A stretch of 64,000 bases of DNA from Anaerolineales bacterium (GTDB lineage: Bacteria; Chloroflexota; Anaerolineae; Anaerolineales; UBA11579), in assembly GCA_025808555.1 (NCBI GenBank), contig CP075526.1, positions 1,848,712-1,912,711 of the forward strand, written 5' to 3'. This document shows positions 10,581-57,187 of the stretch, in pieces (positions within the stretch are counted from its first letter, which is position 1; each line of letters begins with the position of its first letter). Position numbers and translations under genes: made by a program. The notes under the pieces are model-generated. The model worked only from the letters and a program-made list of their open reading frames with translations. It had not been told where the DNA came from and searched no databases.

Positions 10581-10582
10581 CC

Positions 10583-16707: not shown

Positions 16708-16773
16708 GGCTGCAAATCATGCCTATGCTATACTGCGCTTGAATCGATACTTGTGAGCGAACGAAACAGCACA

Positions 16774-17451: not shown

Positions 17452-17478
17452 GCATGAAGACCTCACCCTGGAGCGAGT

Positions 17479-20124: not shown

Positions 20125-20154
20125 CGCTAGGCAGAGGCATGTAGGACAAAAAGG

Positions 20155-21384: not shown

Positions 21385-21404
21385 GTAGGCAGGAGAACTG
21401 AAGC

Positions 21405-22847
<1,443 letters not shown>

Positions 22848-22850
22848 CCC

Positions 22851-23819: not shown

Positions 23820-23821
23820 CC

Positions 23822-24763
23822 ATGATGTGGATCGCGCTGTCACTCCTGTTCATTGTCATCGTTGGCGCCATCACCCTGGTGGTATTGGGCCTGCGCGAAA
23901 GCCGCGGGGGCGACACACTCTCGCGCCGACTGGCAGAGTATGCCGAGCGCGGCGAGATCACCAGCCTGGAGGAGATCGAGCTCTCGCAGCCATTCATGGA
24001 ACGCGTGGTGTACCCGGCCGCCCAGCGTTTTGGCGAACTGGCCCAGCGTTTTACTCCGCAAAATGCGATTACCGAGACACGCCGCCAACTGGACATGGCC
24101 GGCACTCCGCGTTGGCTGGAGCCAACCGTGTTCCTGGCTTCGCGCCTGATCTTTGGCCTCGGCTTAGGCGCTCTGATGTTCTTTGTATTTTCGCTTTCGC
24201 CCACTACTTCGCCGTTTGCGTTGACTTCCATGCTTATTACCGGCGGGTCGATATTCATTGGCTTCTTTTTGCCAAACATGCTGCTCAACCGCAGTGTGCG
24301 CCGCCGCCAATCTGAAGTCACCAAAGCCATGCCAGATGCGATGGACCTGCTGACCATCTGCGTAGAAGCCGGCCTGGGCTTTGACGCCGCCATGCGCAAG
24401 GTGGTGGAGAAGTGGGACAACGACCTGGCGCGTGCGTTTGGCCGCGTGCTACAGGAGATCCAGCTGGGCAAGCTGCGCCGCGAAGCGCTGCGAGACATGT
24501 CTGCCCGCCTGGGTGTGGATGAGATCAACACCTTTGTGGCAGCAGTGATCCAAAGCGAGCAGTTGGGTGTCAGCATGGCACGCGTGTTGCGTGTGCAGTC
24601 AGACGCCATGCGCGTCAAGCGCCGCCAGCGGGCGGAAGAGAATGCCCAGAAGGCGCCGGTGAAAATGCTGTTGCCCATGGCGTTTCTGATCTTCCCGACC
24701 ATCATGATCATTCTGCTTGGGCCAGCTGTCCTGCAGATCATGCGCTCGGGCGCGTTCTTCTAG
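23822..24763 (+). CDS. tadC: Type II secretion system F family protein (TadC)
   Basis: 313 aa with the same architecture as TadB (MPDAMDLLTICVEAGLGFDAAM). It starts 2 nt after tadB ends. Confidence 0.85.
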   Translation: MMWIALSLLFIVIVGAITLVVLGLRESRGGDTLSRRLAEYAERGEITSLEEIELSQPFMERVVYPAAQRFGELAQRFTPQNAITETRRQLDMAGTPRWLEPTVFLASRLIFGLGLGALMFFVFSLSPTTSPFALTSMLITGGSIFIGFFLPNMLLNRSVRRRQSEVTKAMPDAMDLLTICVEAGLGFDAAMRKVVEKWDNDLARAFGRVLQEIQLGKLRREALRDMSARLGVDEINTFVAAVIQSEQLGVSMARVLRVQSDAMRVKRRQRAEENAQKAPVKMLLPMAFLIFPTIMIILLGPAVLQIMRSGAFF

Positions 24764-33058: not shown

Positions 33059-34174
33059 ATGTCCAACCCATCCCCACTCAGCAGACGAGATTTTCTGAAA
33101 CTTGGCAGCCTGGGCCTGGGCGCGGCGGCCCTGGGGCCGCTGGCTGGCCCGGGTTTGAAGGTCAACCCGCGCTACTTGCTGCAGGAGCCTTTTCCGCAGG
33201 CCGAGCGCCTGGGCCGCGTGGTGGAGGAGTTGGATCGCTTCGTCTATTTGCGCGCCGCCCCCAGCCGCGAGGCGGCGGAGGTGGGCCAGCTGATGGGCGA
33301 TGCAGTCGTGCCATGGATCCGCGAAGTGGTGGGCAGCGCCAGCGGCCTGCGCAACCAGCGCTGGATCGAAACGCCGCAAGGCTATGTATGGGCCCCATTT
33401 TTGCAGCCAGTCAAGAACATCACCAATACTCCGCTGACTGCATTGCCGGATTATGGCAACGGCCCCGGCATGTGGATGGAAGTCACTCAGCCCTATGTCG
33501 AGGTGCAGCTGGCAAACGCCAGCGCACCCTACGGTCACCGTATCCGCTTTCTGGTGCAGAGCAACTGGCCCATCCGTTTGTATTACGGCCAGGTGATGTG
33601 GGTTGACGAGATCCGCACCAACGATGCGGGTCAAGTTGAATACCATGTGTATGATTTGTACGGCAGCCTTGGCGATCACTTCTGGGCGCCGGCGCACGCC
33701 TTCAAGCCCATCCACCCTGAGGACATAGCTCCCATCTCGCCTGAGGTGGAGAACAAAGAGCTCGTCATCAATATTGCGCGCCAAACCATGTCTTGTTTTG
33801 AGGATGGCCGCGAGGTGTATTTTTCGCGTGTCTCCACAGGACGCGATGATGAAGATGGAGTGGGATTCACGCCGGTGAGTGATTATCTACGGGTGTACAT
33901 GAAGTACATCTCGACCACCATGACGGGCGGCACCTCCGGCGCCGGCTACGATCTGGCAGGCATTGGCTGGTGCACTTTCATCGCCACCGGTGGCATTGCG
34001 GTGCATACTTGTTATTGGCACAACAACTATGGCGAGCGCACTTCGGCGGGCTGCATCAACGCCACACAGGATGATGCCAAGTTCATCTTCCGCTGGACTG
34101 CGCCGCAGGTGGAGTATTACCCGGGCAAGATCGATCAAGTAGCGGGCACGAGTGTGCGCGTCGTGCAGGGCTAA
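33059..34174 (+). CDS. L,D-transpeptidase family protein with a Tat signal peptide
   Basis: 371 aa. The twin-arginine signal is SRRDFLKLGSLGLGAAA. The C-terminal YkuD-like catalytic region is HTCYWHNNYGERTSAGCINAT (a His ... SxGC pattern). Confidence 0.7.
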   Translation: MSNPSPLSRRDFLKLGSLGLGAAALGPLAGPGLKVNPRYLLQEPFPQAERLGRVVEELDRFVYLRAAPSREAAEVGQLMGDAVVPWIREVVGSASGLRNQRWIETPQGYVWAPFLQPVKNITNTPLTALPDYGNGPGMWMEVTQPYVEVQLANASAPYGHRIRFLVQSNWPIRLYYGQVMWVDEIRTNDAGQVEYHVYDLYGSLGDHFWAPAHAFKPIHPEDIAPISPEVENKELVINIARQTMSCFEDGREVYFSRVSTGRDDEDGVGFTPVSDYLRVYMKYISTTMTGGTSGAGYDLAGIGWCTFIATGGIAVHTCYWHNNYGERTSAGCINATQDDAKFIFRWTAPQVEYYPGKIDQVAGTSVRVVQG

Positions 34175-34180
34175 GCCGGC

Positions 34181-35067
34181 ATGATACCGGCGCCCAGCGT
34201 AGGGTTGGCCTTCCTGGCTGGTTTGGCTTCCTTCCTCTCCCCGTGCGTATTTGCTCTGGTGCCGGTGTACGTGGGCTACCTGAGTGGCCGCGTGGCAGGG
34301 GTACAAGGACAGCCCGACACATGGCGCAGCTTTTTGCACGGGCTGGCTTTCGTGATCGGCTTCAGCTTCATTTTCATTTTGCTTGGCTTGTTTTCGGCGG
34401 CCTTAGGCCAGTTCATGTTCTCTTTCACGCGCCTGCTGTCACAGGTGGGCGGCGTCATTGTTATTCTCTTCGGTTTACATCTCAGTGGAATACTGCGCAT
34501 ACGCTGGCTGGATTACGAGTTGCGCGCCCAATCCAGCTTGCGATCGCAGCGCGGTTATCTTTCATCCGCTATGATGGGCGTATTCTTCTCGGCGGGGTGG
34601 GTGCCGTGCGTGGGCCCGGTGTTAGGCTCCATCCTCACCTTGGCCTTCAACAGCGCCGAGCTAAGCCAGGGTGCGGTGCTGCTCAGCGCCTATTCCGCCG
34701 GGTTGGCCATTCCCTTTTTGATTGCAGCCACCCAGGTCAGCTGGATCACGAATGTGGTGCGCCGCTACGCGCGCCTGAGTCATTATGTGGAGCGCATCAC
34801 CGGCCTGGTGCTGGTGGCGCTGGGCTTGCTGCTGCTCAGCGGCCGTTTTCAAACCCTGGCCAGCCTGGGCTTCTTCTTCACCACATTCGAGGAGGGCCGC
34901 ATTGGCCTGCACATGCTGCTGGCCATTCTGGCCAGCCTATTGTTGGGCCTCGGCGTAGGCGCCGTGGCCCAACGTCGCGGCCAGCCGTTCGGTCAGTGGT
35001 GGTTCATTGGCAGCGGCGCCAGCCTGCTGATGATCGTGGCACTGTACGCGCTGGGCGCACTCTCTCC

Positions 35068-35071
<4 letters not shown>
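34181..35071 (+). CDS. ccdA: Cytochrome c biogenesis protein CcdA (DsbD-family thiol-disulfide transporter)
   Basis: 296 aa and polytopic. The conserved cysteines lie in FLSPCVFALVPVY and GWVPCVGPVLG. Confidence 0.85.
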
Positions 35072-35550
<479 letters not shown>

Positions 35551-35555
35551 CCATT

Positions 35556-36542
35556 ATGATCACCGTCACCCTGTACACCAAAGACAACTGCTCGCTATGC
35601 GAGACTGCCAAGCAGGATTTGCAGGCGCTGCAGGACAAAATCCCACATAACCTGGCGCTCGTTAATATTGAGAAAGACCCTGACCTCAAGGCCGCCTATG
35701 GTACGCGTGTGCCCGTGGTGCAGGTTGGCCCGTATGTGGTCGAAGCCCCTTTTGACCGCCGCAAACTGGAGATGACCATGGCCGCAGCCCGAGATCGCGT
35801 TGAGCAAATTGAAGGCGACCCCAAGTATGCAAAGCGCAAAGCGCGCGGCGCCAAGGTGACCGGCTCTGACCGCTTGGCCCAGTTTCTCGGCCGCCATTAT
35901 CTGGCTTTACTCAACTTGATCGTGTTCTTGTATGTGGGTCTACCGTTCCTGGCTCCCGCGTTGATGAACGCTGGCTATCCTGGCCTGGCGCGGCCGATCT
36001 ACTCGACCTATGGGGCCGTGTGTCATCAAATGGCGTTCCGCTCCTGGTTCTTGTTTGGCGACCAACCGGTCTACCCGCGCGCCGCGGCGGGCTTGCAAGA
36101 GTACGTCAGCTATGAAGCTGCCACCGGGCTGAACAGCGATGACATGCTGGATGCCCGTCGCTTTATTGGCAATGAGCAGGTTGGTTACAAAGTTGCCTTC
36201 TGCCAGCGCGATGTTGCCATCTACGGTGCAATATTAGTGTTTGGCCTGCTCTATGCGGCCACCGGTCGGCGCATCAAGCCGTTGCATTGGATGCTGTGGA
36301 TCGCACTGGGCTTTGTGCCCATTGGCCTGGATGGGTTCAGCCAGTTGCTCAGCCAGATACCCAACTGGAGCTTCTGGGAATACCGCGAGAGTACGCCGCT
36401 GCTGCGTACGCTGACCGGCGCCATTTTTGGCTTCACCACGGCTTGGTTCGGCATTCCGTTGCTTGAAGAGTCGTTCCAGGATGTGCGCGTGCAGACAGCT
36501 TCCAAGAAAGCCCGCATCGAAGGCGCCAAGAAAAAGCAATAA
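35556..36542 (+). CDS. Glutaredoxin-like domain fused to a DUF2085-type membrane domain
   Basis: 328 aa. The N-terminal roughly 80 aa have a Grx/Trx fold (ITVTLYTKDNCSLCETAK ... VPVVQV). A basic linker follows, then 4-6 TM helices with the Cys/His motifs CHQMAFRSWF and FCQRDVAIYG typical of DUF2085. Confidence 0.65.
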   Translation: MITVTLYTKDNCSLCETAKQDLQALQDKIPHNLALVNIEKDPDLKAAYGTRVPVVQVGPYVVEAPFDRRKLEMTMAAARDRVEQIEGDPKYAKRKARGAKVTGSDRLAQFLGRHYLALLNLIVFLYVGLPFLAPALMNAGYPGLARPIYSTYGAVCHQMAFRSWFLFGDQPVYPRAAAGLQEYVSYEAATGLNSDDMLDARRFIGNEQVGYKVAFCQRDVAIYGAILVFGLLYAATGRRIKPLHWMLWIALGFVPIGLDGFSQLLSQIPNWSFWEYRESTPLLRTLTGAIFGFTTAWFGIPLLEESFQDVRVQTASKKARIEGAKKKQ

Positions 36543-37330
36543 TGCCGTTTCAGCAAACTGACGGCCTGCGCTATTACACCTTTGAGAAGCTACACGCGGC
36601 TGGCGTCAAACATGCTGTCTTCACCCGCCAAGGTGGGGTCAGTGCTGCGCCGTATGATTCGCTCAATGTGGGCAGCACCGTTGGCGATGAGCTGGCAGAT
36701 GTGCGCCAGAACCTACAGCGTGCATTTACGGCGGTGGGCCGTAGGCCTGAGAGCATGTTCGATAGCTGGCTAGTGCACGGCGTCGATGTGCACGTTGCCC
36801 ACGCCCCGCGCCCGGCTGACTGGGCGCGCCCGCCCAAAGCCGACATCATCATCACTGATCAGCCTGAGGTCACGCTGTTCATGCGCTATGCCGATTGTGT
36901 GCCAATTGTGCTGTATGACCCGCGGCAACGTGCCGTTGCGCTGGCGCATGCCGGTTGGCGCGGCACGGTAGCGCGCGTGCCTGCGGTCGCCGTGGCAGCG
37001 CTCAGCCAGCATTACGGCAGCCGCCCGCAGGACCTGCTGGCCGCCATCGGCCCCGCCATCTCCGCCGAGCGCTACGAGGTGGGCGAAGAGGTTGTGCAGC
37101 AGGTGCAGGCTGCGTTCGGCGGCCAGGCGAGCGGGCTGCTGCCGGCTTATGGTGAGAGTTCGCACTTTGACCTGGTGGCTGCCAACCAGCTTGTCTTGCA
37201 GCAGGCTGGTGTGCAGAACATCGAAATGGCCGACCTGTGTACGGCTGGCAATCCGCAAGACTGGTTCTCGCATCGCGGCTCTGCTGGGCGCACTGGCCGC
37301 TTTGGCGCATTGATTACACTTGGTGCATGA
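36542..37330 (+). CDS. pgeF: Peptidoglycan editing factor PgeF (YfiH / laccase-domain, DUF152 family)
   Basis: 262 aa. The motifs are FTRQGGVS, RYADCVPIVLYDP, ALAHAGWRGT and CTAGNPQDWFSHR. Confidence 0.85.
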   Translation: MPFQQTDGLRYYTFEKLHAAGVKHAVFTRQGGVSAAPYDSLNVGSTVGDELADVRQNLQRAFTAVGRRPESMFDSWLVHGVDVHVAHAPRPADWARPPKADIIITDQPEVTLFMRYADCVPIVLYDPRQRAVALAHAGWRGTVARVPAVAVAALSQHYGSRPQDLLAAIGPAISAERYEVGEEVVQQVQAAFGGQASGLLPAYGESSHFDLVAANQLVLQQAGVQNIEMADLCTAGNPQDWFSHRGSAGRTGRFGALITLGA

Positions 37331-38040
37331 GCTATTCGCAACGCCTTGCTCACAACCTGGCCGAAGTGCGCCAGAAAATGGACGCCGCAGCCAGCCAGGC
37401 CGACCGGGACGTCTCCGACGTGCACATGGTCGCTGTTACCAAGGGTCATCCCGCCGAGGCTATTCAGACGTTGCTTGACCTGGGCGTCACTGATATTGGC
37501 GAGAGTTATCTCACCGAGGCGCGTGAGAAGCAGGATGCGCTGGCGGCAGCAAGCAAACTGGACTGGCATATGATCGGCCATGTGCAAAGCCGGAAAGCGC
37601 GCGAAGTAGCCCAGCATTTCTCGATCGTCCATTCCCTGGATAGTCTCAAGCTGGCCGAACGCTTGCACCGCTTTGCGCAAGAGGCCGGGCATGTTCTGCC
37701 GGTGCTGCTGGAATGCAATGTCAGCGGAGAGATCACCAAGCAGGGCTGGGATTGTCATCAGGACGCCAGCGAATTCTTTGCCGATGCACAGGTCATCGCT
37801 GGCCTGCCGGGGCTTGAGGTGCGCGGCTTGATGAGCATGGCGCCCATCACAGCCCGCCTGGCAGAAGCCCGCCCATATTTTGAGCGCACCCGCCAACTGC
37901 GTGATACATTGGCAGAACGCCTGAACATGGCTTTGCCCGACCTCTCGATGGGTATGAGCAATGATTACGAAGCCGCTATTCTGGAAGGGGCGACCATGGT
38001 GCGCATCGGCGAAGGGCTGATGGGTCCGCGGCCGAAGTAA
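37327..38040 (+). CDS. yggS: YggS family pyridoxal-phosphate homeostasis protein
   Basis: I take the ATG at 37327, which overlaps the pgeF stop (ATGA). The motifs are VAVTKGHP (PLP lysine), WHMIGHVQSRK and LSMGMSNDYEAAI. Confidence 0.9.
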   Translation: MSYSQRLAHNLAEVRQKMDAAASQADRDVSDVHMVAVTKGHPAEAIQTLLDLGVTDIGESYLTEAREKQDALAAASKLDWHMIGHVQSRKAREVAQHFSIVHSLDSLKLAERLHRFAQEAGHVLPVLLECNVSGEITKQGWDCHQDASEFFADAQVIAGLPGLEVRGLMSMAPITARLAEARPYFERTRQLRDTLAERLNMALPDLSMGMSNDYEAAILEGATMVRIGEGLMGPRPK

Positions 38041-38048
38041 AGGAGTGT

Positions 38049-38291
38049 ATGGAGCAAGCAATCGCACTGATCTTTGATCTGCTGAGCTGGATCGTCATCA
38101 TTGATATTCTGCTGGGTTACTTCATGGATCCATATCACCCCGTGCGCCAGGCGCTGGACCGTATTGTTGAGCCTATGCTGGCGCCCATCCGCCGCATTTT
38201 GCCGCCCACCGGTATGCTGGATTTCAGCCCTCTGGTATTGCTGATCCTGCTGCAGATCCTCAGCGCGGTCGTCATCAACGCGTTCCGCTAA
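38049..38291 (+). CDS. yggT: YggT family membrane protein
   Basis: 80 aa with two TM helices and the motif RIVEPMLAPIRRILPPTGMLDFSPLV. Confidence 0.85.
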   Translation: MEQAIALIFDLLSWIVIIDILLGYFMDPYHPVRQALDRIVEPMLAPIRRILPPTGMLDFSPLVLLILLQILSAVVINAFR

Positions 38292-38294
38292 GCC

Positions 38295-38600
38295 ATGGCA
38301 CGCCACAAACTGACCGACGGACGCGGCGGAGCTGCCCTTGCCATTCGGGTGACCCCGCGGGCCAGCCGCAACGAGATCGTCGAGATCCTGCCTGACCACA
38401 CGATCAAGATCCGCTTGACGGCCCCGCCAGTGGATGGCAAGGCCAATGAGGCGTTGATCGATTTTCTTTCCAAAGTGCTATCTGTCCCCAGATCGCGCAT
38501 TGAGATCGTTGCCGGCCAAACCGGGCGCGACAAACTCGTCACCATTATTGACATGGATAGCAGCGAAGCCCAGGATCTAATTCTCAAACAGTTGGAATAG
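38295..38600 (+). CDS. DUF167 (YggU) family protein
   Basis: 101 aa. The sequence LAIRVTPRASRNEIVEI ... IRLTAPPVDGKANEALIDFLSKVL is the canonical DUF167 pattern. Confidence 0.85.
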   Translation: MARHKLTDGRGGAALAIRVTPRASRNEIVEILPDHTIKIRLTAPPVDGKANEALIDFLSKVLSVPRSRIEIVAGQTGRDKLVTIIDMDSSEAQDLILKQLE

Positions 38601-39299
38601 CTAACCGTACAAGATGCGCTTGCAGTTATCGCAGCGCGTCAGCTCCTCGGCAGAACGGGCCGCCTGGGCACGCGCCGCCGAGAGCTCGGCCCCGCAGGCG
38701 GAGCAGGTGCCGCCTTGCACTTTGGCTACCGCAGTGCCCGCCTTGCTGCCGCGCAAGGCGGTGTATGTTTCCATGTCTGCGGCAGTTACTGCTCCAGCGG
38801 CGGTTTCGCGCTCTGTGCGCAGGCGCTCGCTCTGTTGGCGCAGTTCAGTTTGTTCAGCAAACAAGGCCTTGTGCTCGCCAGCCAGTTTCGCTTCCACTTC
38901 TGCCAACGCCGAGTCCGCGAGGGCCTTGCTGGCTTGTTGCTGCTCGTGAGCGGCCATTGCTTCCAACTGAACATCTTCCAGCTCGCTTAGACGGCGAGCC
39001 AGACTCTCAGATTCCATTTGCAGGTCTTGCAATTCTTTGGGGTTGGTGACCGAGCCGCCGTAAAGGCTGGCCTGGTTCTGCTCGATGCGTTTTTGTTGAG
39101 CAGCCACCTCTTCTTCGGCGGCACGCAGCGCGGTATGGGCGGTATGCAACGCGGCCTGAGCCTGCTGCTGCGCCTGGCTGGCTGCCTGGTGAGCTTGATT
39201 GTCACCTAGAATGCGCTCGATCTCGGTCAGACGCGCCGCGGCTTGGTCCAGCTTGGTGTCTGCTTGCTGCAAACGATACAGGGAGAAGGCGCGGCTCAT
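38601..39299 (-). CDS. Zinc-ribbon / coiled-coil protein (COG1579-like, C4-type)
   Basis: 232 aa. A long Ala/Gln/Glu-rich coiled coil is followed by the C-terminal C4 ribbon CSACGAELS ... CDNCKRILY. Its stop codon directly abuts the DUF167 stop. Confidence 0.7.
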   Translation of the reverse strand: MSRAFSLYRLQQADTKLDQAAARLTEIERILGDNQAHQAASQAQQQAQAALHTAHTALRAAEEEVAAQQKRIEQNQASLYGGSVTNPKELQDLQMESESLARRLSELEDVQLEAMAAHEQQQASKALADSALAEVEAKLAGEHKALFAEQTELRQQSERLRTERETAAGAVTAADMETYTALRGSKAGTAVAKVQGGTCSACGAELSAARAQAARSAEELTRCDNCKRILYG

Positions 39300-39344
39300 G
39301 CATTGATTATAAGGTAGCCAGGTGGGGCTTTGCTAAAATACAGC

Positions 39345-40829
39345 ATGCGCCGCCAGCTGCCTATTGTACTTTTGGTATTTGTGTTCCTTTTGCTGCAATC
39401 GCTGCCTTTTTTTTCGGCCCAAGTTGCTGCCGATGCGCAGCATCAGTTTGCCGGCTTTCTACTCAATCCAACCGATGGGTTCAGCTACTTGGCCAAAATA
39501 CGCCAGGGCTTCGATGGGCAGTGGAGTTTTGTGATGCCCTATACGGCTCAACCTGGCGAGGGCGCGGCAATCAATCTGTATTACTTATTTCTGGGGCATG
39601 TGGCTCGCTGGGCGGGTTTGGGTCTGGCTTTCACGCTGAACGCGGCGCGTATCGTTGGTGCGGCGGCGCTGTGTGCAGCGCTGTATCGGCTTATCGTCGC
39701 TACCCCGCCCGAGCGGCTCCGTCTGTGGGTATTTGGCTTGGCTCTGTTTGGTTCCGGGGTGGGTTGGTTGGCGGTGCTATTTGGTGGCTTCACAAGTGAC
39801 TTCTGGGTGGCCGAGGCCTATCCGTTCTTGGCCGCGCTGGCCAATGCACACTTCCCGCTAGGGCTCGCTTTGCAGATCTATCTGCTCACACCCGTCGCAA
39901 CCCCGCGGCCGGTTGCCTGGGCGCTGACATCCCTTGCCTTGGTAATGGTCTACCCGTTTGGCTGGGCAGTGGCCGTGGTGGTACTGCTAGGTACGGCGGC
40001 GCTGGCGCAGCTGTGGGAGCAGGCAGCCCGCAGCCGCTGGCAGCAGGCCGCTTGCGTGCTGGTGGCCGGCGCGCCGTATGCACTGTATACATTGTGGGTG
40101 GTGAGTACGCATCCAGTGCTGACCGGCTGGAGCGCGCAGAACCTCACCCCCGCCATGCCCCTCTGGGATTTTGTAGTTTCGTTCTCGCCCGCGCTTTTGC
40201 TGGCCGTGCCGGGCATCTATCTCGCATTCAAACAACGCAGTATTAACCTGGGCCTGTTCGCAGTGTGGGGCATCGCCTGTTTTGTGCTCTTGTATATGCC
40301 CTTTGGCCTGCAGCGCCGTTTGATCAGCGGCATGTATGTTCCGCTGACTGCTTTGGCCGTTGTGGCTGCCGCACACATTTTCGGTTCACGTTTGAAGCTT
40401 GGCTTGACCGCCTTGGCTTTGCTGGCCTTGCCTACGAACTTGCTCGTGTTGCTGGGCATGGCGCAGGCAGTGCAACAGCAGCAGCCTGCGCTGTATCTCC
40501 AAGCAGATGAGCTGGCAGCCTATGCGTGGCTCGATGAGCACGCCGCGCCGGGCGCCTTGGTCTTGGCGCCGGAGCGCAACAGCTTGCATCTGCCCGCGTT
40601 TGCGGATGTGCGCGTCTGGTATGGGCATCCCTTTGAAACTGTGCAGGCATCCCAGCGCCAGGCGGAGGTGCAAGCTTTCTTCGAACAACCATCCGGCGAT
40701 TGGCTGACTGAATGGAAAGTGGAATACGTGCTATTGAATAGCGCCAGCGAGTTTACGAACTCCATCGAAGGCTGGGGCAGCGTGTTCAGTCAGAACAGTA
40801 TAGAGATCTTGGCACGGCATGGGCAATAG
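39345..40829 (+). CDS. Polytopic membrane protein, putative GT-C-like (block 2, member G; paralog of member I)
   Basis: I take the ATG at 39345; the track ORF begins at a TTG at 39330. About 494 aa with more than 10 TM helices. The N-terminal loop FAGFLLNPTDGFSYLAKIRQGFDGQW aligns with member I. Confidence 0.55.
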   Translation: MRRQLPIVLLVFVFLLLQSLPFFSAQVAADAQHQFAGFLLNPTDGFSYLAKIRQGFDGQWSFVMPYTAQPGEGAAINLYYLFLGHVARWAGLGLAFTLNAARIVGAAALCAALYRLIVATPPERLRLWVFGLALFGSGVGWLAVLFGGFTSDFWVAEAYPFLAALANAHFPLGLALQIYLLTPVATPRPVAWALTSLALVMVYPFGWAVAVVVLLGTAALAQLWEQAARSRWQQAACVLVAGAPYALYTLWVVSTHPVLTGWSAQNLTPAMPLWDFVVSFSPALLLAVPGIYLAFKQRSINLGLFAVWGIACFVLLYMPFGLQRRLISGMYVPLTALAVVAAAHIFGSRLKLGLTALALLALPTNLLVLLGMAQAVQQQQPALYLQADELAAYAWLDEHAAPGALVLAPERNSLHLPAFADVRVWYGHPFETVQASQRQAEVQAFFEQPSGDWLTEWKVEYVLLNSASEFTNSIEGWGSVFSQNSIEILARHGQ

Positions 40830-42807
40830 ACTGCGGGCCTGCCTGGCGGAGTACTGGCCCTTCATGCTGCCCGTGCTCCTCTTGCTGCCTGGCCTGAGCG
40901 GCTTCATCTATCCCGGCTCCGGCGCGCTTTTCTCGGATATGGCCGTGACACATTATCCCAACGCGTTGTTCCTGCAGCGCGCCGTGGGTCACAGCGAAGT
41001 GCCCTTGTGGTCTCCGCAAATATTGTCTGGCTTTCCATTTGTTGCTCATCCGTATTCGGGCTTTTGGTATCCGCCATATTGGCTGGTGCTGCTGTTCCCC
41101 TTGCCATTGGGGCTCAACCTTGTGCTCGCCGTACACATCTTGCTCGCTGGCGTAGGCATGTATTGCTTTCTGTGCCAGCGAGGCTTTGCGCGCCAAGCCG
41201 CCATGATCGGCGGCCTGGCTTTTCAGGCTGCGCCGCGGCTTTTTGGCCATGTGGGTGCCGGGCATGTGATGCTGGTGATGGCCGTATGCCTGACGCCCTG
41301 GCTGTTGTGGGCCAGCGGGCAGCGCCGCCTGCCGGCCGCAATGCTACTGGCCCTGATCGCCGCAGCAGACCCGCGCTGGGCGCTGTACGCCGCGGTCCTG
41401 TGGGGCGCATGGCTACTGTGGCAGCGACGTGTACGCCATTTGGTGGAGCAAGCTGCCTTGGCAAGCTTGCTGGCCCTGCCCGCGCTGTGGCTGTATTGGC
41501 AATACGGCCAACTCTCGACCCGCGCCAGCCTCAGCGCAGCCGAAATATTGGAGCTCTCGCTGCCGCCTGCGAGCCTGCTGGGCTTGCTGCTGCCGCAATG
41601 GGGTGGAGCGCATGAATGGATTGTGTACTCAGGCATTGTGCTGCTCCTGCTGGTGCTTGTGGCACATCCCTGGCAGCCAAAGACACGCTTTTGGTTTGCG
41701 GTGATAGTGGCTTGCCTGCTCATTGCACTGGGCAGCCATATCCCTGGTGCGGATCGGCTGGCCGGGTTGCCCGGCTTCTCGCAACTGCGCATCCCGACGC
41801 GCGCTTTGTTGTTGGCTGCGTTTGCGTGGGCGGTGCTGTCCGCCGCCGCGATCCAGCAACTGACCCTGAGTGGTGCACCCCGTCGTGGGTTGCGCTTGCT
41901 ACATGCCGGCGTGTTCGCACTGTTGCTCGCTATTGGCGTGCTGGCCTGGCTGCAAGACGCCCCGCTGTGGCGGCCAGCCTTGTTTGCCGCCGTGCTCACG
42001 GCGGCAGCCTGGCTGGCGCACGAGCGATTGGCGGGCCAACGCCTGACGCTTGTGCTCGGCGGGCTGCTGCTGGCTGACCTGCTCATCGCCTCTGCCAGCT
42101 TGCTGCGCTTCCGGCCGGCGGATGATGTGCTGGCCGAAGGCAGCCACGTGGCCGGGTTCCTCGCTGTGGATGAGGAACCCTTCCGCGTCTATTCGCCAGA
42201 CTACAGCCTACCGCAGCAAACCGCTGCGTTCTACGGCGTGGAGCTTGCCAGCGGGGTGGATCCGCTGCAACTGCAAAGTTACGTTAGCTTCCTTGCCACC
42301 GCAGGAGGCTATCCAGACGAGGGATACAGCGTGGTGCAACCACCGTTGAATGCAAATATTGATTTGGATATTGCGCTGCTAAGCCAGCTCAATGTCAAAT
42401 ACATTGTTTCGGCCCAGCCTGTGTCTGCTGATGGTCTTGGGCAGGTGCAAGTTGAGCCCTATATCTATTTCAACCCCGCGTACCGGCCACGCGCCTGGGT
42501 GGAGCAAGGCGGCGTGGCGCAGCCCGCCACCGTGCTGGATGCGCAGGCCAACCGGATGACGGTGCATGCGTATGGACCCGGCCTGTTGATCCTGGCTGAA
42601 GTGCAGTATCCCGGCTGGCGTTTGTTTGTGGACAGGCAGCCAGCTGAATTCGCCTCGTCTGACGGCCCGTTGCGTACAGTGGCTTTGCCCGACGGCGAGC
42701 ATGAGATCGTACTGCACTTCATGCCGGATGCGCTGCGTTTCGGCGTGCCGATCGCCGCACTGGCTTGGCTGGCATGCATTGGTATCTTGGTGCGGAGGCG
42801 CGCATGA
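40819..42807 (+). CDS. YfhO-like GT-C family membrane protein (block 2, member H)
   Basis: 662 aa. The N-terminal pattern EVPLWSPQILSGFPFVAHPYSGFWYPPYWL and the C-terminal pattern YPGWRLFVDRQPA resemble the YfhO family. It overlaps the end of member G by 11 nt. Confidence 0.65.
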   Translation: MGNRLRACLAEYWPFMLPVLLLLPGLSGFIYPGSGALFSDMAVTHYPNALFLQRAVGHSEVPLWSPQILSGFPFVAHPYSGFWYPPYWLVLLFPLPLGLNLVLAVHILLAGVGMYCFLCQRGFARQAAMIGGLAFQAAPRLFGHVGAGHVMLVMAVCLTPWLLWASGQRRLPAAMLLALIAAADPRWALYAAVLWGAWLLWQRRVRHLVEQAALASLLALPALWLYWQYGQLSTRASLSAAEILELSLPPASLLGLLLPQWGGAHEWIVYSGIVLLLLVLVAHPWQPKTRFWFAVIVACLLIALGSHIPGADRLAGLPGFSQLRIPTRALLLAAFAWAVLSAAAIQQLTLSGAPRRGLRLLHAGVFALLLAIGVLAWLQDAPLWRPALFAAVLTAAAWLAHERLAGQRLTLVLGGLLLADLLIASASLLRFRPADDVLAEGSHVAGFLAVDEEPFRVYSPDYSLPQQTAAFYGVELASGVDPLQLQSYVSFLATAGGYPDEGYSVVQPPLNANIDLDIALLSQLNVKYIVSAQPVSADGLGQVQVEPYIYFNPAYRPRAWVEQGGVAQPATVLDAQANRMTVHAYGPGLLILAEVQYPGWRLFVDRQPAEFASSDGPLRTVALPDGEHEIVLHFMPDALRFGVPIAALAWLACIGILVRRRA

Positions 42808-44345
42808 GCGCCGCGGAGCGCCGCTGGGCGCTGGGCTTCGCCGCCTTTGTGGCGGCGCTGACCAGCCTCCCCTATCTGCTTGCCTTGCTTCCTCAGCCGC
42901 ATACTTTTACTGGCTTCCTGATCGGCGTGGAGGATGGCAACTCGTACATCGCCAAGATGCTGCAGGGCGCGGTCGGCGACTGGCTGTTTCACAGCCCTTA
43001 TAGTACGCAGCCGCAAGTTGGCGCGCTGCTGTATCTGCCATACATCGTGTTGGGCAAGCTGCTGGGTTTGGGGGCCAGCCATCTGGCCTACGTGATCGCG
43101 TTCCATCTCTTTCGCATCCTCAGCATCGGCCTCTTGTGCTTTGCGCTGTATGCCTTTCTGGCAGAGTTTGTAAGCAGCCAGCCGCTGCGTCGCCTTGGCA
43201 CGGCGTTGGCCTTGCTGGGCGGCGGACTGGGCTGGGTACTGCTGCTGTTTGGCCGCAGCGAGATGTTTGGCTCCATGCCGCTGGATTTTTATTCGCCAGA
43301 GACATTCGGCTATCTGGCGGTGTTTGGGTTGCCGCACCTCGTGCTGGCGCGGGCGCTGTTGTTGTATGGCTTGCTTGGCGTGTTGCGCGGAGAGTCTGCC
43401 CGCCATGTGACAATGTTGTGGCTGGCGATGGCGTTGGTGCACTTGCTGACGGCTGCGTTGGGCTTGGTGCTGCTGGCTCTGTATTGTGCGGCGCTGTGGC
43501 TGCGGCATGTGCCAGGCTGGCAAGCCCAATTACGCTCGGTCGTGTGGGCTGTGGCCGGGGCAGCCATCCCGCTGGCCTACAACGCCTGGGCTTATGCAAG
43601 CGACCCGTATTTGCGTGCCTGGGCTAACCAAAACCTGATCCTGGCTCCGCATCCTGCGCATTATTTGCTGGCTTACGGCTGGCTGCTGCCGTTTGCGTAT
43701 CTGGGCTGGCGTGCATTGCGCGCTCGGCCAAATCTTGCAACCCTGAGCGAGGTTTGGCTCCTGGCATTGCCAGTGCTGCTATACCTGCCGGTGGGTTTGC
43801 AGCGCCGCTTTGCGGAGGGTGCCTGGGTGCTACTGCTGGCGTTGACGCTGCGCTATCTGGAGACACGGCCGGCGGCCCAGATACGCCGCGGCGCCTGGCT
43901 GTTCGTGTTGGCGCTGCCGAGCACGCTGCTGTTGTGGTGGGGCGCTATGCAGGCCGCGCTGCATCCGGCCACTCCTGCGTTCCGTCCCGCGGATGAAGTA
44001 TCCATATTCGAAACTTTGCGAACGCGGCCAGATGCGCGCGGCGCGATCGCCCTCGCTGGCTACGACACGGGCAATGCGCTGCCAGCCTGGGTGCCGGTGC
44101 GAGTGATGATTGGCCACGGGCCGGAGACCGTGGGGCTGGAGGCGTTGGGTGCGGAAGTGTTCGCTTTTTACGCCATCGAAATGACGGACAATGAGCGCCT
44201 GGCCTTTTTGCGCCAGCACAGGGTGGATTATGTTGTGTGGGGGCCGGAGCAGGTTGCCTTGCGCCGCTGGTTCCCAAGTTCCGCCCCCTTTATGCAAACG
44301 GTTGCCGTGTATGGTCTCTATGAACTCCTGCGTGTGCTCCCTTAG
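42804..44345 (+). CDS. Polytopic membrane protein, putative GT-C-like (block 2, member I; paralog of member G)
   Basis: I take the ATG at 42804, which overlaps the member H stop (ATGA); the track ORF starts at 42765. 513 aa with the loop motif FTGFLIGVEDGNSYIAKMLQGAVGDW. Confidence 0.55.
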   Translation: MSAAERRWALGFAAFVAALTSLPYLLALLPQPHTFTGFLIGVEDGNSYIAKMLQGAVGDWLFHSPYSTQPQVGALLYLPYIVLGKLLGLGASHLAYVIAFHLFRILSIGLLCFALYAFLAEFVSSQPLRRLGTALALLGGGLGWVLLLFGRSEMFGSMPLDFYSPETFGYLAVFGLPHLVLARALLLYGLLGVLRGESARHVTMLWLAMALVHLLTAALGLVLLALYCAALWLRHVPGWQAQLRSVVWAVAGAAIPLAYNAWAYASDPYLRAWANQNLILAPHPAHYLLAYGWLLPFAYLGWRALRARPNLATLSEVWLLALPVLLYLPVGLQRRFAEGAWVLLLALTLRYLETRPAAQIRRGAWLFVLALPSTLLLWWGAMQAALHPATPAFRPADEVSIFETLRTRPDARGAIALAGYDTGNALPAWVPVRVMIGHGPETVGLEALGAEVFAFYAIEMTDNERLAFLRQHRVDYVVWGPEQVALRRWFPSSAPFMQTVAVYGLYELLRVLP

Positions 44346-44354
44346 AATACGCTT

Positions 44355-46535
44355 GTGAGCTTAGCGAAGCGATTCTCCCCGCAGGTTCTGATTTGGCTTG
44401 CTCCGTTTGTATTGCTCACCCCGGTGTGGTTGAGCGGGCAAGCCTTGTACTGGGGCACGCCTTCGACCCAGTTTGTGCCATGGTGGTGGCAAGCTTGGCG
44501 TACGTTGCTGGGCGGCGAGTTGCCGCTGTGGAACCCGCTGCTGGGCATGGGCGCGCCGCTGGTGGCTAATTACCAATCGGCCTTGTTCTATCCGCCGCAT
44601 TGGTTGTATTTCGTGCTGGCGGCGGTCGGCGGACTGCCGCTGATGGCCTGGGGCCAGGCGCTGCTGGTGGCGGCCCACCTGGGTCTGGCTGGCGCCGGCA
44701 TGCTGCGGTTGCTGCGCGTTCTGGGGGCGAGCGTGCAAGGCCAACTGGTGGGTGCACTGGCATTCTCGCTGTCGGGCTATTTGGTGACGCGGGCGCACTT
44801 TCTCAGCATCAATGCCAGCTTGGCCTGGCTGCCGTGGATCCTGCTGGCCATGTATCGGTTGGCGCAGGCGCCTGGCCGTGGCACTGTATTGCGCTTGGCT
44901 GCACTGCTGGCCTTGCAGTGGCTGGCGGGCCACGCGCAAATGGCCTGGTATACGGCGCTGCTGGCCGGCGCCTGGCTGCTGTTCTGGGTCTGGCCATCCG
45001 GCGAGCGTTGGCGGGCGCTGGCCGGCTTTGTGGCCGCCGGCGCATTGGCGCTGGCGCTGAGCGCGGTGCAGCTGTTGCCCACGGCGGAATATCTGCTGCA
45101 GTCGCAGCGCGCCAGCCAAGTGGACCCCGCGCTGGCGATGACGTATTCGCTGTGGCCGTGGCGTTTGCTGACTCTGCTGGCGCCGCACTTGTTCGGCTCG
45201 CCGGCGGGCGGTGACTTTGCTGGCTACGGAAACTTTTGGGAAGATGCGATCTATATTGGCGTGCTGCCCTTGCTGCTGGCCGTGCTGGCGCTGAGGAAAG
45301 CGCAGCCGCGCCGGCTGGTGTGGTTCCTGCTGGGCGTGGTGGCCGTGTCCTTGTTGCTGGCGCTGGGCAAGAATACGCCGGTCTTCTCCTGGTTGTTCGC
45401 GCATATCCCTACCTTTGATATGTTCCAAGGCCCGACGCGCTTCAGCCTGTGGACGGTGCTGGCGCTCAGCCTGCTGACTGGGCTGGGCGTAGAGCGCTGG
45501 CGCGCTGCGCAAGGGAGTTCGCCCCAAGGGCGTGGCCTGTACTGGAGCCGGCTGGCGGTGGCAGGTGCGGTGGCCGTGATGGCCGGCGGGGTGGTGGGCA
45601 TGTTGTTGCGCACAGACCCGCGTTTCGAGATAGCAGCCAGCTACTCGCGGGCCGTTTGGCTGCTTGGCCTGACCTTGCTTGCAGTGAGTTTGCTCAACTT
45701 GCGCGGCTGGCAGTTCGCGCAAGGCAAGCGCACCTGGCTGCTGGGCATATTTGTGGCCGGCGAGCTGCTGGTGGCGGGCTGGGGGCAAAACCCAGGCGCA
45801 CCTCTGGCCTTGTATGCTGAACAGCCCATGCACGCAGATCTGCAAACTCAGCTTGATGGCGGGCGGCTGTATATGCCGGCGGAGGATGAGCGCGCGCTGA
45901 AGTTCGAGCATCTGTTTCGCTTTGATACCTTCCATAGTGCTGACCCGCTGGACGTGCGCGCCGGCTTGTTGCCAAATACCAGCCTGCTGGAAGGTTTGCC
46001 GAGCGCCAACAACTTTGACCCGCTGCTGCCGGCGCGCTACACGGCCTGGATCGAGGCACTGGAGAACGCAGATCCGGAGACGCGGGCCAGCATGCTGACT
46101 TTGATGAACGTGAGCGTGTTGCAGCATGTGCTGCCGGATGGGCAAGGGCGCTTTGAGAGCGTGCCAGCTTTGCCGCGTGTCCAGTTGTACGCTTGCCAGC
46201 CGCCTGTGGCGCTGGCCGCCGAGCTGCCCGCCTGCCCGCTGGCTGGCGAGGCCAACATCGTGCAAAGCAGCGCCAACCGCGTGCGCATCCGGGTGGATGT
46301 GGCGCAGGGCGGCTGGCTGCTGCTGGCCGATACGTATTACCCCGGCTGGCACGCCGAGATTGACAGCGTGCCAGCCGATATTCAGCCAGCCTATGGCGTG
46401 TTCCGTGCTGTGCAAGTGCCAGCCGGTGTACATCAGGTTGAGTTTGTGTATCGGCCCCTCTCTTTTACTATTGGCCAGGTCAGCACGTTGCTGACCTGGC
46501 CGTTGTGGTTGGTTGCATGGCGGCGCAGCCTATGA
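44355..46535 (+). CDS. YfhO-like GT-C family membrane protein (block 2, member J; paralog of member H)
   Basis: 726 aa with a GTG start. The N-terminal pattern is ELPLWNPLLGMGAPLVANYQSALFYPPHWL and the C-terminal pattern is YYPGWHAEIDSVPA. Confidence 0.7.
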   Translation: MSLAKRFSPQVLIWLAPFVLLTPVWLSGQALYWGTPSTQFVPWWWQAWRTLLGGELPLWNPLLGMGAPLVANYQSALFYPPHWLYFVLAAVGGLPLMAWGQALLVAAHLGLAGAGMLRLLRVLGASVQGQLVGALAFSLSGYLVTRAHFLSINASLAWLPWILLAMYRLAQAPGRGTVLRLAALLALQWLAGHAQMAWYTALLAGAWLLFWVWPSGERWRALAGFVAAGALALALSAVQLLPTAEYLLQSQRASQVDPALAMTYSLWPWRLLTLLAPHLFGSPAGGDFAGYGNFWEDAIYIGVLPLLLAVLALRKAQPRRLVWFLLGVVAVSLLLALGKNTPVFSWLFAHIPTFDMFQGPTRFSLWTVLALSLLTGLGVERWRAAQGSSPQGRGLYWSRLAVAGAVAVMAGGVVGMLLRTDPRFEIAASYSRAVWLLGLTLLAVSLLNLRGWQFAQGKRTWLLGIFVAGELLVAGWGQNPGAPLALYAEQPMHADLQTQLDGGRLYMPAEDERALKFEHLFRFDTFHSADPLDVRAGLLPNTSLLEGLPSANNFDPLLPARYTAWIEALENADPETRASMLTLMNVSVLQHVLPDGQGRFESVPALPRVQLYACQPPVALAAELPACPLAGEANIVQSSANRVRIRVDVAQGGWLLLADTYYPGWHAEIDSVPADIQPAYGVFRAVQVPAGVHQVEFVYRPLSFTIGQVSTLLTWPLWLVAWRRSL

Positions 46536-47629
46536 GCCTGCGCCGCCTGCTTTCGCCGACGCTGGTGACCCTGCTGGCGGCGCTGCTGGTGCTGGGTGCA
46601 GTGCTGGCCCGGGCCGGCTGGGACGTGAATGAGCTCATCCGTCCCGGCACGCAGTTCACGCAGGGTGAACCAAATGGCAGCGAAGGCTACGATGGGCAGT
46701 TCTTCTATGCCATCGCTCGCTATGCGGATCCGCAGGAAGCGGCGCAGTATCTGGATGTGCCGGCCTACCGTTACCAGCGCATCCTGCTGCCGCTGCTGGC
46801 GCGCGGCGTAAGCTTTGGCAACCCCAGCCTGCTGGCCTGGATGCTGCCACTGGTGGCGCTGGTGGCGCATCTCGTCGGCGTTCAACTGCTGGGGCAGCTG
46901 TTGCAACGCTGGAGCCAAAGCCGCTGGTATGCGCTGGGCTACGGCCTGCTGCTGGGCTGCCTGCTCTCCATCCGTTTGGCGCTGCCCGAGACGCTGGCGT
47001 TTGCGCTGGTGATCGCGGCGGTGTGGTGCGAAGAGCGCGGGCGCACTCCACTCAATTGGTTGTTGCTCTCACTGGCCGTGTTCGCCAAGGAGACCGCGCT
47101 GCTGTTCGTGGCGGCGCAAGGGCTGAGCTACCTCTTCGCCCGTCGCTGGCGGGATGCGGCCGGCCTGGCGCTGGTGGTGGGCCTGCCACTGGCCGCGTTC
47201 AGGCTGTGGCTGCTGGGCCAGTTTGGCAGCCTGGGGTTCGGGTTGGGTGGGGCGAATGCGACTGGCCTGGAGTGGATACCCTTCGCGGGCTGGTGGCGCA
47301 TCGGCGAGTACAACCAAGTTTGGATGCTGGTAGTTGGCCTGCTGTATATGCCCACGATCTTTATGCCCACCTTGTGGGGCTTGTGGGCTGGGCTGCGTGC
47401 GTGGTTGCGCCAGCAGGCCGACTTTAGCGCGCTGGCGCTTTTGGCGCACGCGGCCATCTTTCCGTTCATGACGTTGGCTTTGTATATAGAGCCGTATGGG
47501 GCGGTGCGGCTGGCGGTGGGCCTGCAGCTGGCGGCGCTGCTGTTCGCCGGGCGGCATGGAGTGCGGCGGGTGCTTGCATACGGAGTGCTGTTCACGCTGA
47601 TGAGCCTGTGGCTGTTTGTGCCGGAATAG
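46532..47629 (+). CDS. Polytopic membrane protein of unknown function (block 2, member K)
   Basis: I take the ATG at 46532, which overlaps the member J stop (ATGA); alternative starts lie at 46505 and 46517. About 365 aa. It has the loop motif GYDGQFFYAIARYADP ... YRYQRILLPLLAR and about 9 TM helices. Confidence 0.55.
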   Translation: MSLRRLLSPTLVTLLAALLVLGAVLARAGWDVNELIRPGTQFTQGEPNGSEGYDGQFFYAIARYADPQEAAQYLDVPAYRYQRILLPLLARGVSFGNPSLLAWMLPLVALVAHLVGVQLLGQLLQRWSQSRWYALGYGLLLGCLLSIRLALPETLAFALVIAAVWCEERGRTPLNWLLLSLAVFAKETALLFVAAQGLSYLFARRWRDAAGLALVVGLPLAAFRLWLLGQFGSLGFGLGGANATGLEWIPFAGWWRIGEYNQVWMLVVGLLYMPTIFMPTLWGLWAGLRAWLRQQADFSALALLAHAAIFPFMTLALYIEPYGAVRLAVGLQLAALLFAGRHGVRRVLAYGVLFTLMSLWLFVPE

Positions 47630-57081: not shown

Positions 57082-57130
57082 CAGGGTCGAGCAGTGCAGT
57101 AACTGCTCAGACAGCAGCAGAATGGAGACA

Positions 57131-57160
57131 AAAAGAGCGCCGTATGGCGCTCTTTTGTTT
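57131..57160 (+). terminator. Intrinsic terminator after the aldehyde dehydrogenase gene
   Basis: Stem AAAAGAGCGCC, loop GTAT, stem GGCGCTCTTTT, then GTTT. It lies inside the 5' end of the track ORF 57122-58921, which argues for a later start of that gene. Confidence 0.8.
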
Positions 57161-57187
57161 ATACTGGCGGTCATTCAGGACGGTTTG

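Follow-up and report, generated by a model that had tools for sequence, protein, structure and literature searches.

A run of five adjacent genes in an Anaerolineales genome, here called G, H, I, J and K, raises the question of why two kinds of large polytopic membrane protein alternate in tandem, and whether each consecutive pair works as one enzyme. The genes lie in a 64,000-nt stretch of contig CP075526.1 (assembly GCA_025808555.1, positions 1,848,712 to 1,912,711 of the forward strand; the whole stretch is called the window below), which comes from a metagenome-assembled genome (MAG) annotated 'Anaerolineales bacterium', and they carry the locus tags KIT08_09445 to KIT08_09465. The original prediction, made from the letters of the window, had described them as a duplicated module of two genes, in which a partner protein and a protein resembling YfhO would form an obligate two-component transferase. 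Our analysis kept the module and its duplication and found no support for the obligate pairing. We consider it fairly probable, as one joint statement, that the block is a single operon for five polytopic proteins with the glycosyltransferase C (GT-C) fold, drawn from three families, and that these proteins act in sequence outside the membrane.

Five head-to-tail genes and two pairs of paralogs

The five open reading frames (ORFs) run head to tail on the plus strand in the order G-H-I-J-K, and both this arrangement and the junctions were as had been described: G and H overlap by 11 nt, H and I as well as J and K meet at ATGA, and I and J are separated by 9 nt. The two pairs of paralogs were also borne out. 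G and I shared 31% identity over 465 aa by BLASTP (E=8e-28), and H and J shared 27% identity over 679 columns (E=7e-22). Because both alignments were nearly full length, the similarity exceeds that expected from a shared hydrophobic composition.

G and I form an unannotated GT-C family

G, I and K had no family in Pfam, G and I had none in NCBIfam, and the profile of the G family matched no PDB chain by sequence even at E<=10. The AlphaFold2 model of G, calculated from 32 homologs, had a predicted local distance difference test score (pLDDT) of 95.2 and a predicted template modelling score (pTM) of 0.93. The model comprised about 11 transmembrane (TM) helices and a C-terminal alpha/beta soluble domain (residues ~380-494, ~115 aa) that is predicted to be periplasmic. 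When it was compared with the PDB using Foldseek, every one of the best 25 matches was a GT-C enzyme (E<=1e-3 for 23), and below these lay noise. The top match was STT3 of yeast and human (E=1.7e-8, TM-score 0.57-0.61, TMq 0.57), and further matches were AftA, AglB, DPY19, PglB, ArnT, ALG12, AftD and EmbB. The predicted fold agrees with the GT-C-like character that had been suggested for G, and I probably has the same fold, judging from its full-length identity to G.

A short motif, DGFSYLAK in G (residues 44-51) and EDGNSYIAK in I, provides D44 as a candidate catalytic base with Y48 at +4. D44, Y48, A50 and K51 were invariant across the 32 sequences of the G family, and D44 and Y48 were at least 95% conserved in both the G family (n=80) and the I family (n=48). 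Assignment of secondary structure to the G model by DSSP showed that TM1 consists of residues 5-28 and the next helix of residues 42-56, and D44 sits 16 residues past TM1 at the start of this first loop helix. Placed in this way, G and I would have the conserved Asp in the first extracytoplasmic loop (JM1) that is a feature of GT-C enzymes. In PimE the catalytic base of the first loop is D58 at the tip of JM1, which is hydrogen-bonded by Y62 and corresponds to the catalytic Asp in ALG6, ArnT and PglB (PMC12041525). The Asp-x3-Tyr spacing in G and I is the same as that of D58 and Y62.

Other residues common to the G and I families at a level of at least 95% were E157, H169, Q323-R324-R325, H428 and E431, while W262, Q265 and N266 and the block G427-H428-x-x-E431 were also conserved in both. 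Q323-R324-R325 and H169 are possible phosphate ligands. With the fold, the Asp-x3-Tyr motif, the conserved Arg and His residues and a soluble domain of their own, G and I look like GT-C enzymes able to work by themselves. The role of an accessory, uncharacterised partner that had been assigned to G does not fit a protein with its own GT-C fold and candidate catalytic motif. An STT3-type oligosaccharyltransferase (OST) of family GT66 was also considered for G and I and was rejected, as neither has a WWD motif and neither matched STT3 or the solved OSTs by sequence.

The G/I profile, searched against 1.84 billion proteins, matched 7,480 cluster representatives (50% identity) at E<=1e-3 and 3,001 at E<=1e-30. 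All matches of the first protein search that bear a source name were labelled 'hypothetical protein'. The best 150 representatives of the G/I family included no fusion proteins, and all of them were 476-580 aa long. We conclude that G and I belong to a large, newly recognized GT-C family that is covered by neither Pfam, NCBIfam nor the PDB and that now has a candidate catalytic motif.

In GenBank the G protein (KIT08_09445, P0002, 431 aa) begins at Met64, so the first 63 codons (39345-39533) are missing from it and TM1 and the DG-x-SY-x-AK motif are lost. An exact-sequence look-up of this protein returned no record. A start at 39345, or at a TTG at 39330, is supported by orthologs of 494-500 aa and by the conservation of residues 21-62.

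H and J belong to the YfhO lineage, with and without a loop-1 Asp

J matched the Pfam YfhO family, PF09586, over residues 83-478 with 105.1 bits (4.5e-30; gathering threshold 28.5). H of the window matched with 15.5 bits at the C-terminus only, which is below the threshold, yet all 25 H-family sequences (H of the window and 24 orthologs) matched PF09586 at E<=0.01, the best at 1.4e-15. The suggestion that both proteins are YfhO-like holds for J as it stands and for H at the level of its family, H itself being homologous to YfhO proteins but divergent. The only NCBIfam matches of J were weak ones of its C-terminus to PgfM2 (5.6e-7) and PgfM1, and a sequence search of the PDB with J gave nothing useful.

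D40 of H, in the first extracytoplasmic loop, was Asp in 54 of 54 H-family sequences, and in alignments it fell on the Asp that proteins annotated as YfhO in Microvirga ('WDSKNQFYP...GELPLWNP') and Bacteroides carry in loop 1. These proteins make up a small reference set, and a profile search with them for further references found close Microvirga relatives only. In J the aligned residue is Thr35. This position was T in 45 of 51 J orthologs and was never D or E. J has an invariant pair, E296-D297, in a later loop that is predicted to lie outside the cytoplasm; H has E266-W at this place. Catalysis by J may proceed through a different arrangement or an alternative active site, or J may be a non-catalytic partner or pseudo-enzyme. 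R252, R362 and H108 were conserved in H and J and are possible phosphate ligands. YfhO proteins of the J type, which lack the loop-1 Asp, are a new observation, and the H/J pair, one member with and one without this residue, is a natural test of its part in YfhO-type enzymes.

K is a member of the AZOBR_p60025 family

K was assigned to NCBIfam NF046093, the AZOBR_p60025 family, with 171.7 bits against a cut-off of 150 (E=1.4e-50, positions 3-232/232); the family is named 'cell surface glycopolymer formation protein'. A full-text literature search for the name AZOBR_p60025 found no paper. The model of K had a pLDDT of 90.4, and its top 20 Foldseek matches in the PDB were all GT-C-fold proteins, every one of them a glycosyltransferase except PIG-U; they included GPI mannosyltransferase I, ALG9, PimE, PIG-U, ALG12, AftB, ArnT and Pmt4. 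The motif EGYDGQF in loop 1 contains D54 as the candidate catalytic Asp. In 31 sequences G52, Y53, D54, G55, Q56 and F57 were invariant and E51 was conserved at a level of at least 90%. K had no match to Pfam at E<=1, including the GT87 (PimE-like) and GT50 (PIG-M) models, and the profile of the K family had no sequence match in the PDB. The likeness of K to PimE and PIG-M would therefore be one of predicted fold only.

Three families linked by fold

Profile-profile comparison gave no sequence relation between the G and H families (probability 0.8%) or between the G and K families (probability 5%), so that only the fold links the three families G/I, H/J and K. Four of the five proteins, G, I, H and K, had an invariant Asp in their first extracytoplasmic loop. 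Coordinates are collected in Table 1.

Table 1. Positions in the window of the five genes, their candidate residues and the adjoining features
Feature	Position	Strand	Remarks
G	39345-40829	+	ORF, 494 aa, polytopic
H	40819-42807	+	ORF, 662 aa
I	42804-44345	+	ORF, 513 aa
J	44355-46535	+	ORF, 726 aa, GTG start
K	46532-47629	+	ORF, 365 aa
DGFSYLAK motif of G, residues 44-51	39474-39497	+	D44 candidate catalytic base, Y48 at +4
D44 of I, EDGNSYIAK motif	42933-42935	+	same motif as G
D40 codon of H	40936-40938	+	first extracytoplasmic loop, 'SD..xHYP' context
Thr35 codon of J	44457-44459	+	aligns with H D40
E296-D297 of J	45240-45245	+	invariant; later loop, predicted extracytoplasmic
D54 of K, EGYDGQF motif	46691-46693	+	loop 1, candidate catalytic Asp
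Divergent intergenic region, 45 nt	39300-39344		between the minus-strand zinc-ribbon gene (38601-39299) and G; presumed promoter region
Perfect hairpin, 14 bp, 9 G-C pairs	46472-46502	+	in the final 60 nt of J and 30 nt ahead of the J stop/K start

The operon is conserved in the Anaerolineae

A scan of one genome per species found relatives of G in 305 genomes, and the best 80 of these 305 loci (L001-L080), each from the genome of a different species, were examined. All 80 were from Chloroflexota, mostly Anaerolineales, Anaerolineaceae, Bellilinea, Longilinea and Anaerolinea, and MAGs assigned to Anaerolinea, Bellilinea and Longilinea carried the operon. The gene order was determined by tblastn of G to K onto the 80 loci, and loci with 7.5 kb or more of downstream sequence, 53 in all, were taken as informative. 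The order G-H-I-J was found in 20 of them and G-H-I-J-K in 16, so that 36 of the 53 informative Anaerolineae loci had G-H-I-J(-K); ten had G-H-J, five G-I-J and two G-J. Only G and J were found in every one of the 53.

A gene of the H, I or J type followed G within 600 bp in 70 of 71 related loci, and in 64 of the 71 this next gene was of the YfhO type (H in 61, J in 3). G-like genes therefore do stand next to yfhO-like genes across genomes, as the original prediction had supposed. The genes upstream were equally syntenic: those for YkuD, DsbD, DUF2085, PgeF, YggS and DUF167 and the zinc-ribbon gene were found in 49-75 of the 80 loci. Because the whole region of 15-20 kb is syntenic across the class, these upstream housekeeping genes included, the adjacency is one inherited arrangement and not many independent associations. 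Five GT-C-type genes of three families packed in one operon, widely conserved in the sampled Anaerolineae, are a new observation.

Some relatives have an extra gene between I and J or between H and J. These genes were considered as a sixth gene of the pathway and were rejected, as they were of unrelated families (HhH-GPD, nitroreductase, LysE, histidine kinase, OmpR-type regulator, SDR and DUF166). A sub-lineage without I had an OmpR-type response regulator between H and J (L016, 13930-14718; L019, 12500-13276), and L028, L031 and L044 had a gap of similar size between H and J at the same position.

The only match labelled outside the Anaerolineae among the 80 loci was L066, from a MAG labelled Ca. 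Aquidulcis (Limnocylindria). It carried a G-type gene with 43% identity in the segment 4259-11356, and the contig ended at this gene. The upstream context of L066 was different and consisted of genes for an ABC transporter, ABC_transp_aux, DUF4340 and rpoD.

An old duplication, probably of the two-gene module

In the tree of G and I orthologs the two formed reciprocally monophyletic clades separated by a long branch, and the same was true of H and J. Identity within families was 42-46%, while between families it was 27% for G/I and 23% for H/J. These separate clades and the low identity between families show that the duplication is older than the radiation of the sampled Anaerolineae. G/I and H/J pairs from the same locus were no closer than pairs from different genomes, and a recent duplication or gene conversion was therefore ruled out. 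The alternating order and the similar divergence of the two pairs fit one duplication of a G-H unit, and the alternating order is consistent with the earlier view that a two-gene module was duplicated. The great age of this duplication is a new result.

No support for G and H or I and J as obligate pairs

In the loci with the orders G-H-J, G-I-J and G-J there were members whose proposed partner was absent from the locus. These variants indicate that the genes can be dropped singly, as expected for separate steps and not for fixed pairs. Co-evolution was analyzed with a mirror-tree (distance-matrix) test on 23 loci, using five upstream housekeeping proteins as controls, which is a weak test. 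G, H, I and J all co-varied beyond the controls, with partial r of 0.62 for H-J, 0.59 for H-I, 0.53 for I-J, 0.51 for G-H, 0.46 for G-I and 0.29 for G-J. No co-evolution specific to G-H or I-J was found in these 23 loci, and the test does not discriminate. As G and I look complete by themselves, variant loci occur, co-evolution is not specific to the pairs, fusions were not found among the best 150 representatives and the adjacency goes back to a single inherited arrangement, an obligate two-component transferase is not supported.

A sequential pathway outside the membrane and its alternatives

We favour, with reasonable though far from full confidence, a sequential pathway of extracytoplasmic glycan assembly or decoration. 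Outside the membrane, the five proteins would each contribute steps to the building or decoration of a single envelope glycopolymer or glycoconjugate, and the duplicated copies would since have specialized towards different donor, acceptor or linkage specificities. The neighbours of the operon are envelope-related (YkuD L,D-transpeptidase, DsbD/thioredoxin, the peptidoglycan editing factor PgeF, YggS and YggT), and the name of the K family points to a cell-wall-associated glycopolymer. Enzymes of the YfhO type, in CsbB-GtcA-YfhO systems, use C55-P-sugars on teichoic acids (PMC5836110, PMC8035078). In the streptococcal Pgf system, PgfM1 and PgfM2 are YfhO paralogs of one operon that serve one protein O-glycosylation pathway; PgfM1 is needed for GalNAc transfer, and loss of PgfM2 increases the mobility of PrsA, suggesting a later step (10.1101/2024.05.05.592596).

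Several points weigh against a sequential pathway. No polyprenyl-phosphate sugar synthase of the glycosyltransferase A (GT-A) type and no GtrA/Wzx flippase was found in the operon, among the window ORFs that were scanned, or within 10 kb on either side in a relative with 73% identity; the genes for these two functions may lie elsewhere in the genome. No conserved acidic residue was found anywhere in loop 1 of J in the 51 orthologs, and at least one of the five proteins may therefore not be a conventional enzyme. The Foldseek E values of K were weak (~1e-2), with a probability of 0.95-1.0 for the best 14 matches and down to 0.72. The conserved residues were placed in three dimensions from predicted secondary structure, and it is from sequence and models that we infer enzymatic activity, lipid-linked donors, sequential action and the nature of the acceptor. 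Finally, the tight translational coupling also fits a protein complex.

Such a complex would be a heteromeric GT-C machine, either G+H and I+J or one larger assembly, with J as a non-catalytic binder of acceptor or lipid. EmbA-EmbB and Pmt1-Pmt2 are GT-C heterodimers. The overlapping or ATGA-coupled junctions, the presence of G and J in 53 of 53 informative loci and the co-variation of four proteins beyond the five controls (partial r 0.29-0.62) are all consistent with a heteromer. So is the absence of a conserved acidic residue from loop 1 of J, when H and the YfhO proteins of Microvirga and Bacteroides carry one there, although the reference set for this Asp is small and J might have an alternative active site made of the invariant E296-D297 and other conserved loop residues. 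PIG-U, which has the GT-C fold but is non-catalytic, is a precedent for such a subunit (PMC12041525), and a review offers the speculation that acceptor recognition by small GT-C enzymes may depend on a further protein (PMC8035078). However, the G-J partial r was the lowest of all, and the values for G-H and I-J did not exceed those for H-J and H-I. The loci with G-H-J and G-I-J break a 1:1 pairing, no fusions occurred among the 150 best G/I representatives, and G has its own C-terminal soluble domain. We regard a heteromeric machine as unlikely. A more elaborate version, to which we give a low probability, would make G and I the new GT-C family of a multi-subunit machine with YfhO-type proteins, in which the Asp-less J would be a non-catalytic subunit presenting the acceptor or lipid, a bacterial counterpart of PIG-U, and the product would be the outer envelope layer of the Anaerolineae.

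Protein O-glycosylation would differ from the sequential pathway outlined above in the acceptor only, which would be Ser/Thr-rich stretches in proteins of the surface or membrane. In streptococci, PgtC2, PgfM1 and PgfM2 of the YfhO family modify Ser/Thr-rich disordered regions (10.1101/2024.05.05.592596), and the C-terminus of J matched PgfM2 and PgfM1, but these matches lay far under the equivalog cut-offs of 1400-1500 bits. By fold G came closest to the oligosaccharyltransferases STT3, AglB and PglB and to DPY19, which C-mannosylates proteins, but the WWD motif of these oligosaccharyltransferases is absent from G and I, and neither protein matched a solved OST by sequence. No gene for a Ser/Thr-rich candidate acceptor was found at the locus, and the family name of K speaks for glycopolymer formation. 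We regard a protein acceptor as improbable. The proteins might also not be glycosyltransferases at all, with GT-C-like folds serving in lipid handling, transport or scaffolding and a conserved Asp that is non-catalytic. GT-C folds with other roles exist, PIG-U being an example, and all five proteins are uncharacterized. However, four of the five keep the invariant Asp in the canonical catalytic region, the significant structural neighbours of G were all enzymes, and transferase roles have been proven by genetics in the family of H and J. We regard a non-transferase function as very improbable.

The sequential pathway, if correct, bears on the envelope of these bacteria. Chloroflexota envelopes lack genes for lipopolysaccharide and for outer-membrane protein assembly, and their extra layers are 'suggested to be composed of polysaccharides or proteins' (PMC13319060). 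The operon offers a genetic handle on a glycan built outside the membrane by Anaerolineae, because it encodes five GT-C-type proteins, recurs among the 80 loci examined and has peptidoglycan- and division-related neighbours, and it is a good candidate for the synthesis of an envelope sugar layer.

Regulatory features and neighbouring genes

The short divergent region upstream of G is presumed, from the gene layout, to be the promoter region of the operon; a consensus scan of it found no sigma-70-type match. The 80-nt stretch around the hairpin at the 3' end of J had a folding energy of -41.5 kcal/mol (RNAfold). A similar hairpin was found in the closest relatives only (L001-L003), where it was weakly conserved, and not in more distant loci. 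It has no clear U-tract and may be incidental. An Arg/Gln/Pro-rich ORF of 690 aa antisense to J (44361-46433, minus strand), which lies fully inside J, is taken to be spurious and of a kind common in high-GC DNA.

The upstream block (33059-39299) contains genes for a YkuD L,D-transpeptidase, DsbD, a thioredoxin-like protein, a Glrx-like/DUF2085 protein, PgeF, YggS, YggT and DUF167, and is closed by the zinc-ribbon/CT398-like gene on the minus strand; it forms a long envelope- and division-related syntenic region. Many relatives carry, between the DUF167 gene and the zinc-ribbon gene, a gene for a membrane-anchored protein of 830-880 aa with a P-loop NTPase domain (AAA_22/NACHT) and HEAT repeats (L013, 6597-9227, minus strand; L020, 6500-9136, minus strand; L032, L042, L060 and L080 at the same position). 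The lineage of the window is without it, the DUF167 gene ending at 38600 and the zinc-ribbon gene lying on the minus strand at 38601-39299. Downstream of the operon, this lineage has an XRE/cupin regulator and an M24 peptidase. L013 has a MoxR-type AAA ATPase and a DUF58 protein (Pfam) immediately after the operon, and L007, L021, L032, L042 and L080 have, at the same position after J or K, ORFs of similar N-terminal sequence.

A second cluster of polytopic GT-C-type genes in the window (block 1, 8530-18540) encodes an unassigned 484-aa protein, an S-adenosylmethionine (SAM) methyltransferase, a GT87 protein, two PMT_2 proteins and an LA_3751/2-like protein, followed by a NarL-type response regulator and a histidine kinase. 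A polytopic protein of 599 aa (57122-58921) had no Pfam or NCBIfam family. It matched J weakly and over a short stretch (25% over 105 aa, E=8e-4) and may be a distant GT-C or YfhO-like protein. The earlier tally of 12 such genes in the window was roughly right. The window also contains a Tad/Flp-type pilus set (18973-24763) with RcpC/CpaB, a response-regulator-ParA/CpaE-like ATPase, a T2SSE ATPase and two T2SSF proteins.

Comparison with known systems

The closest known relatives are the members of the YfhO family (YfhO of B. subtilis, S. aureus and L. monocytogenes, PgtC2 of S. pyogenes, and PgfM1 and PgfM2 of S. mutans), to which J is linked by its match to PF09586 and H as its full-length paralog. 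The known members are polytopic, have a large C-terminal extracytoplasmic part and, outside the membrane, use C55-P-sugar as the donor for sugar transfer. A single operon of S. mutans likewise encodes two YfhO paralogs. In contrast, H and J are very divergent, the J type lacks the loop-1 Asp, no CsbB/GtrB-type GT-A gene or GtcA flippase gene adjoins the operon, and H and J are interleaved with the unrelated GT-C family of G and I and followed by a third family, K. To our knowledge teichoic acids have not been reported from Chloroflexota, and a full-text literature search for YfhO and Chloroflexi found no paper. A transmembrane glycosylation system of three or more components (GT-A enzyme, flippase and GT-C enzyme) would be expected to have the genes for its cognate polyprenyl-phosphate GT-A and GtrA/Wzx flippase together with the GT-C gene, and neither was found with this operon or in the scanned surroundings given above.

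The GT66 enzymes STT3, PglB and AglB are the best folds for G (TM-score 0.5-0.6), and a TM core with a C-terminal soluble domain is common to both. However, G has neither their WWD motif nor a sequence match to them, and its C-terminal domain, at ~115 aa, is much smaller. K scored above the curated cut-off of the AZOBR_p60025 family over the full 232-position model, and its GT-C fold and D54 are predicted features.

In the synthesis of mycobacterial lipomannan, lipoarabinomannan and arabinogalactan, several GT-C enzymes of different families are thought to act in sequence, outside the membrane and with polyprenyl-P-sugar donors, on a single glycan linked to lipid or wall. These mycobacterial and corynebacterial pathways (PimE, MptA/B/C, AftA-D, EmbC-EmbA-EmbB) also contain tandemly duplicated GT-C genes, and by predicted fold G resembles AftA, AftD and EmbB while K resembles PimE and AftB. 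The enzymes of the two groups differ in that they have no detectable sequence homology and come from different lineages, and here a single compact operon contains all five genes. Systems of this kind are already known, as GT-C enzymes, YfhO included, act outside the membrane, and nothing in the present operon contradicts current understanding.

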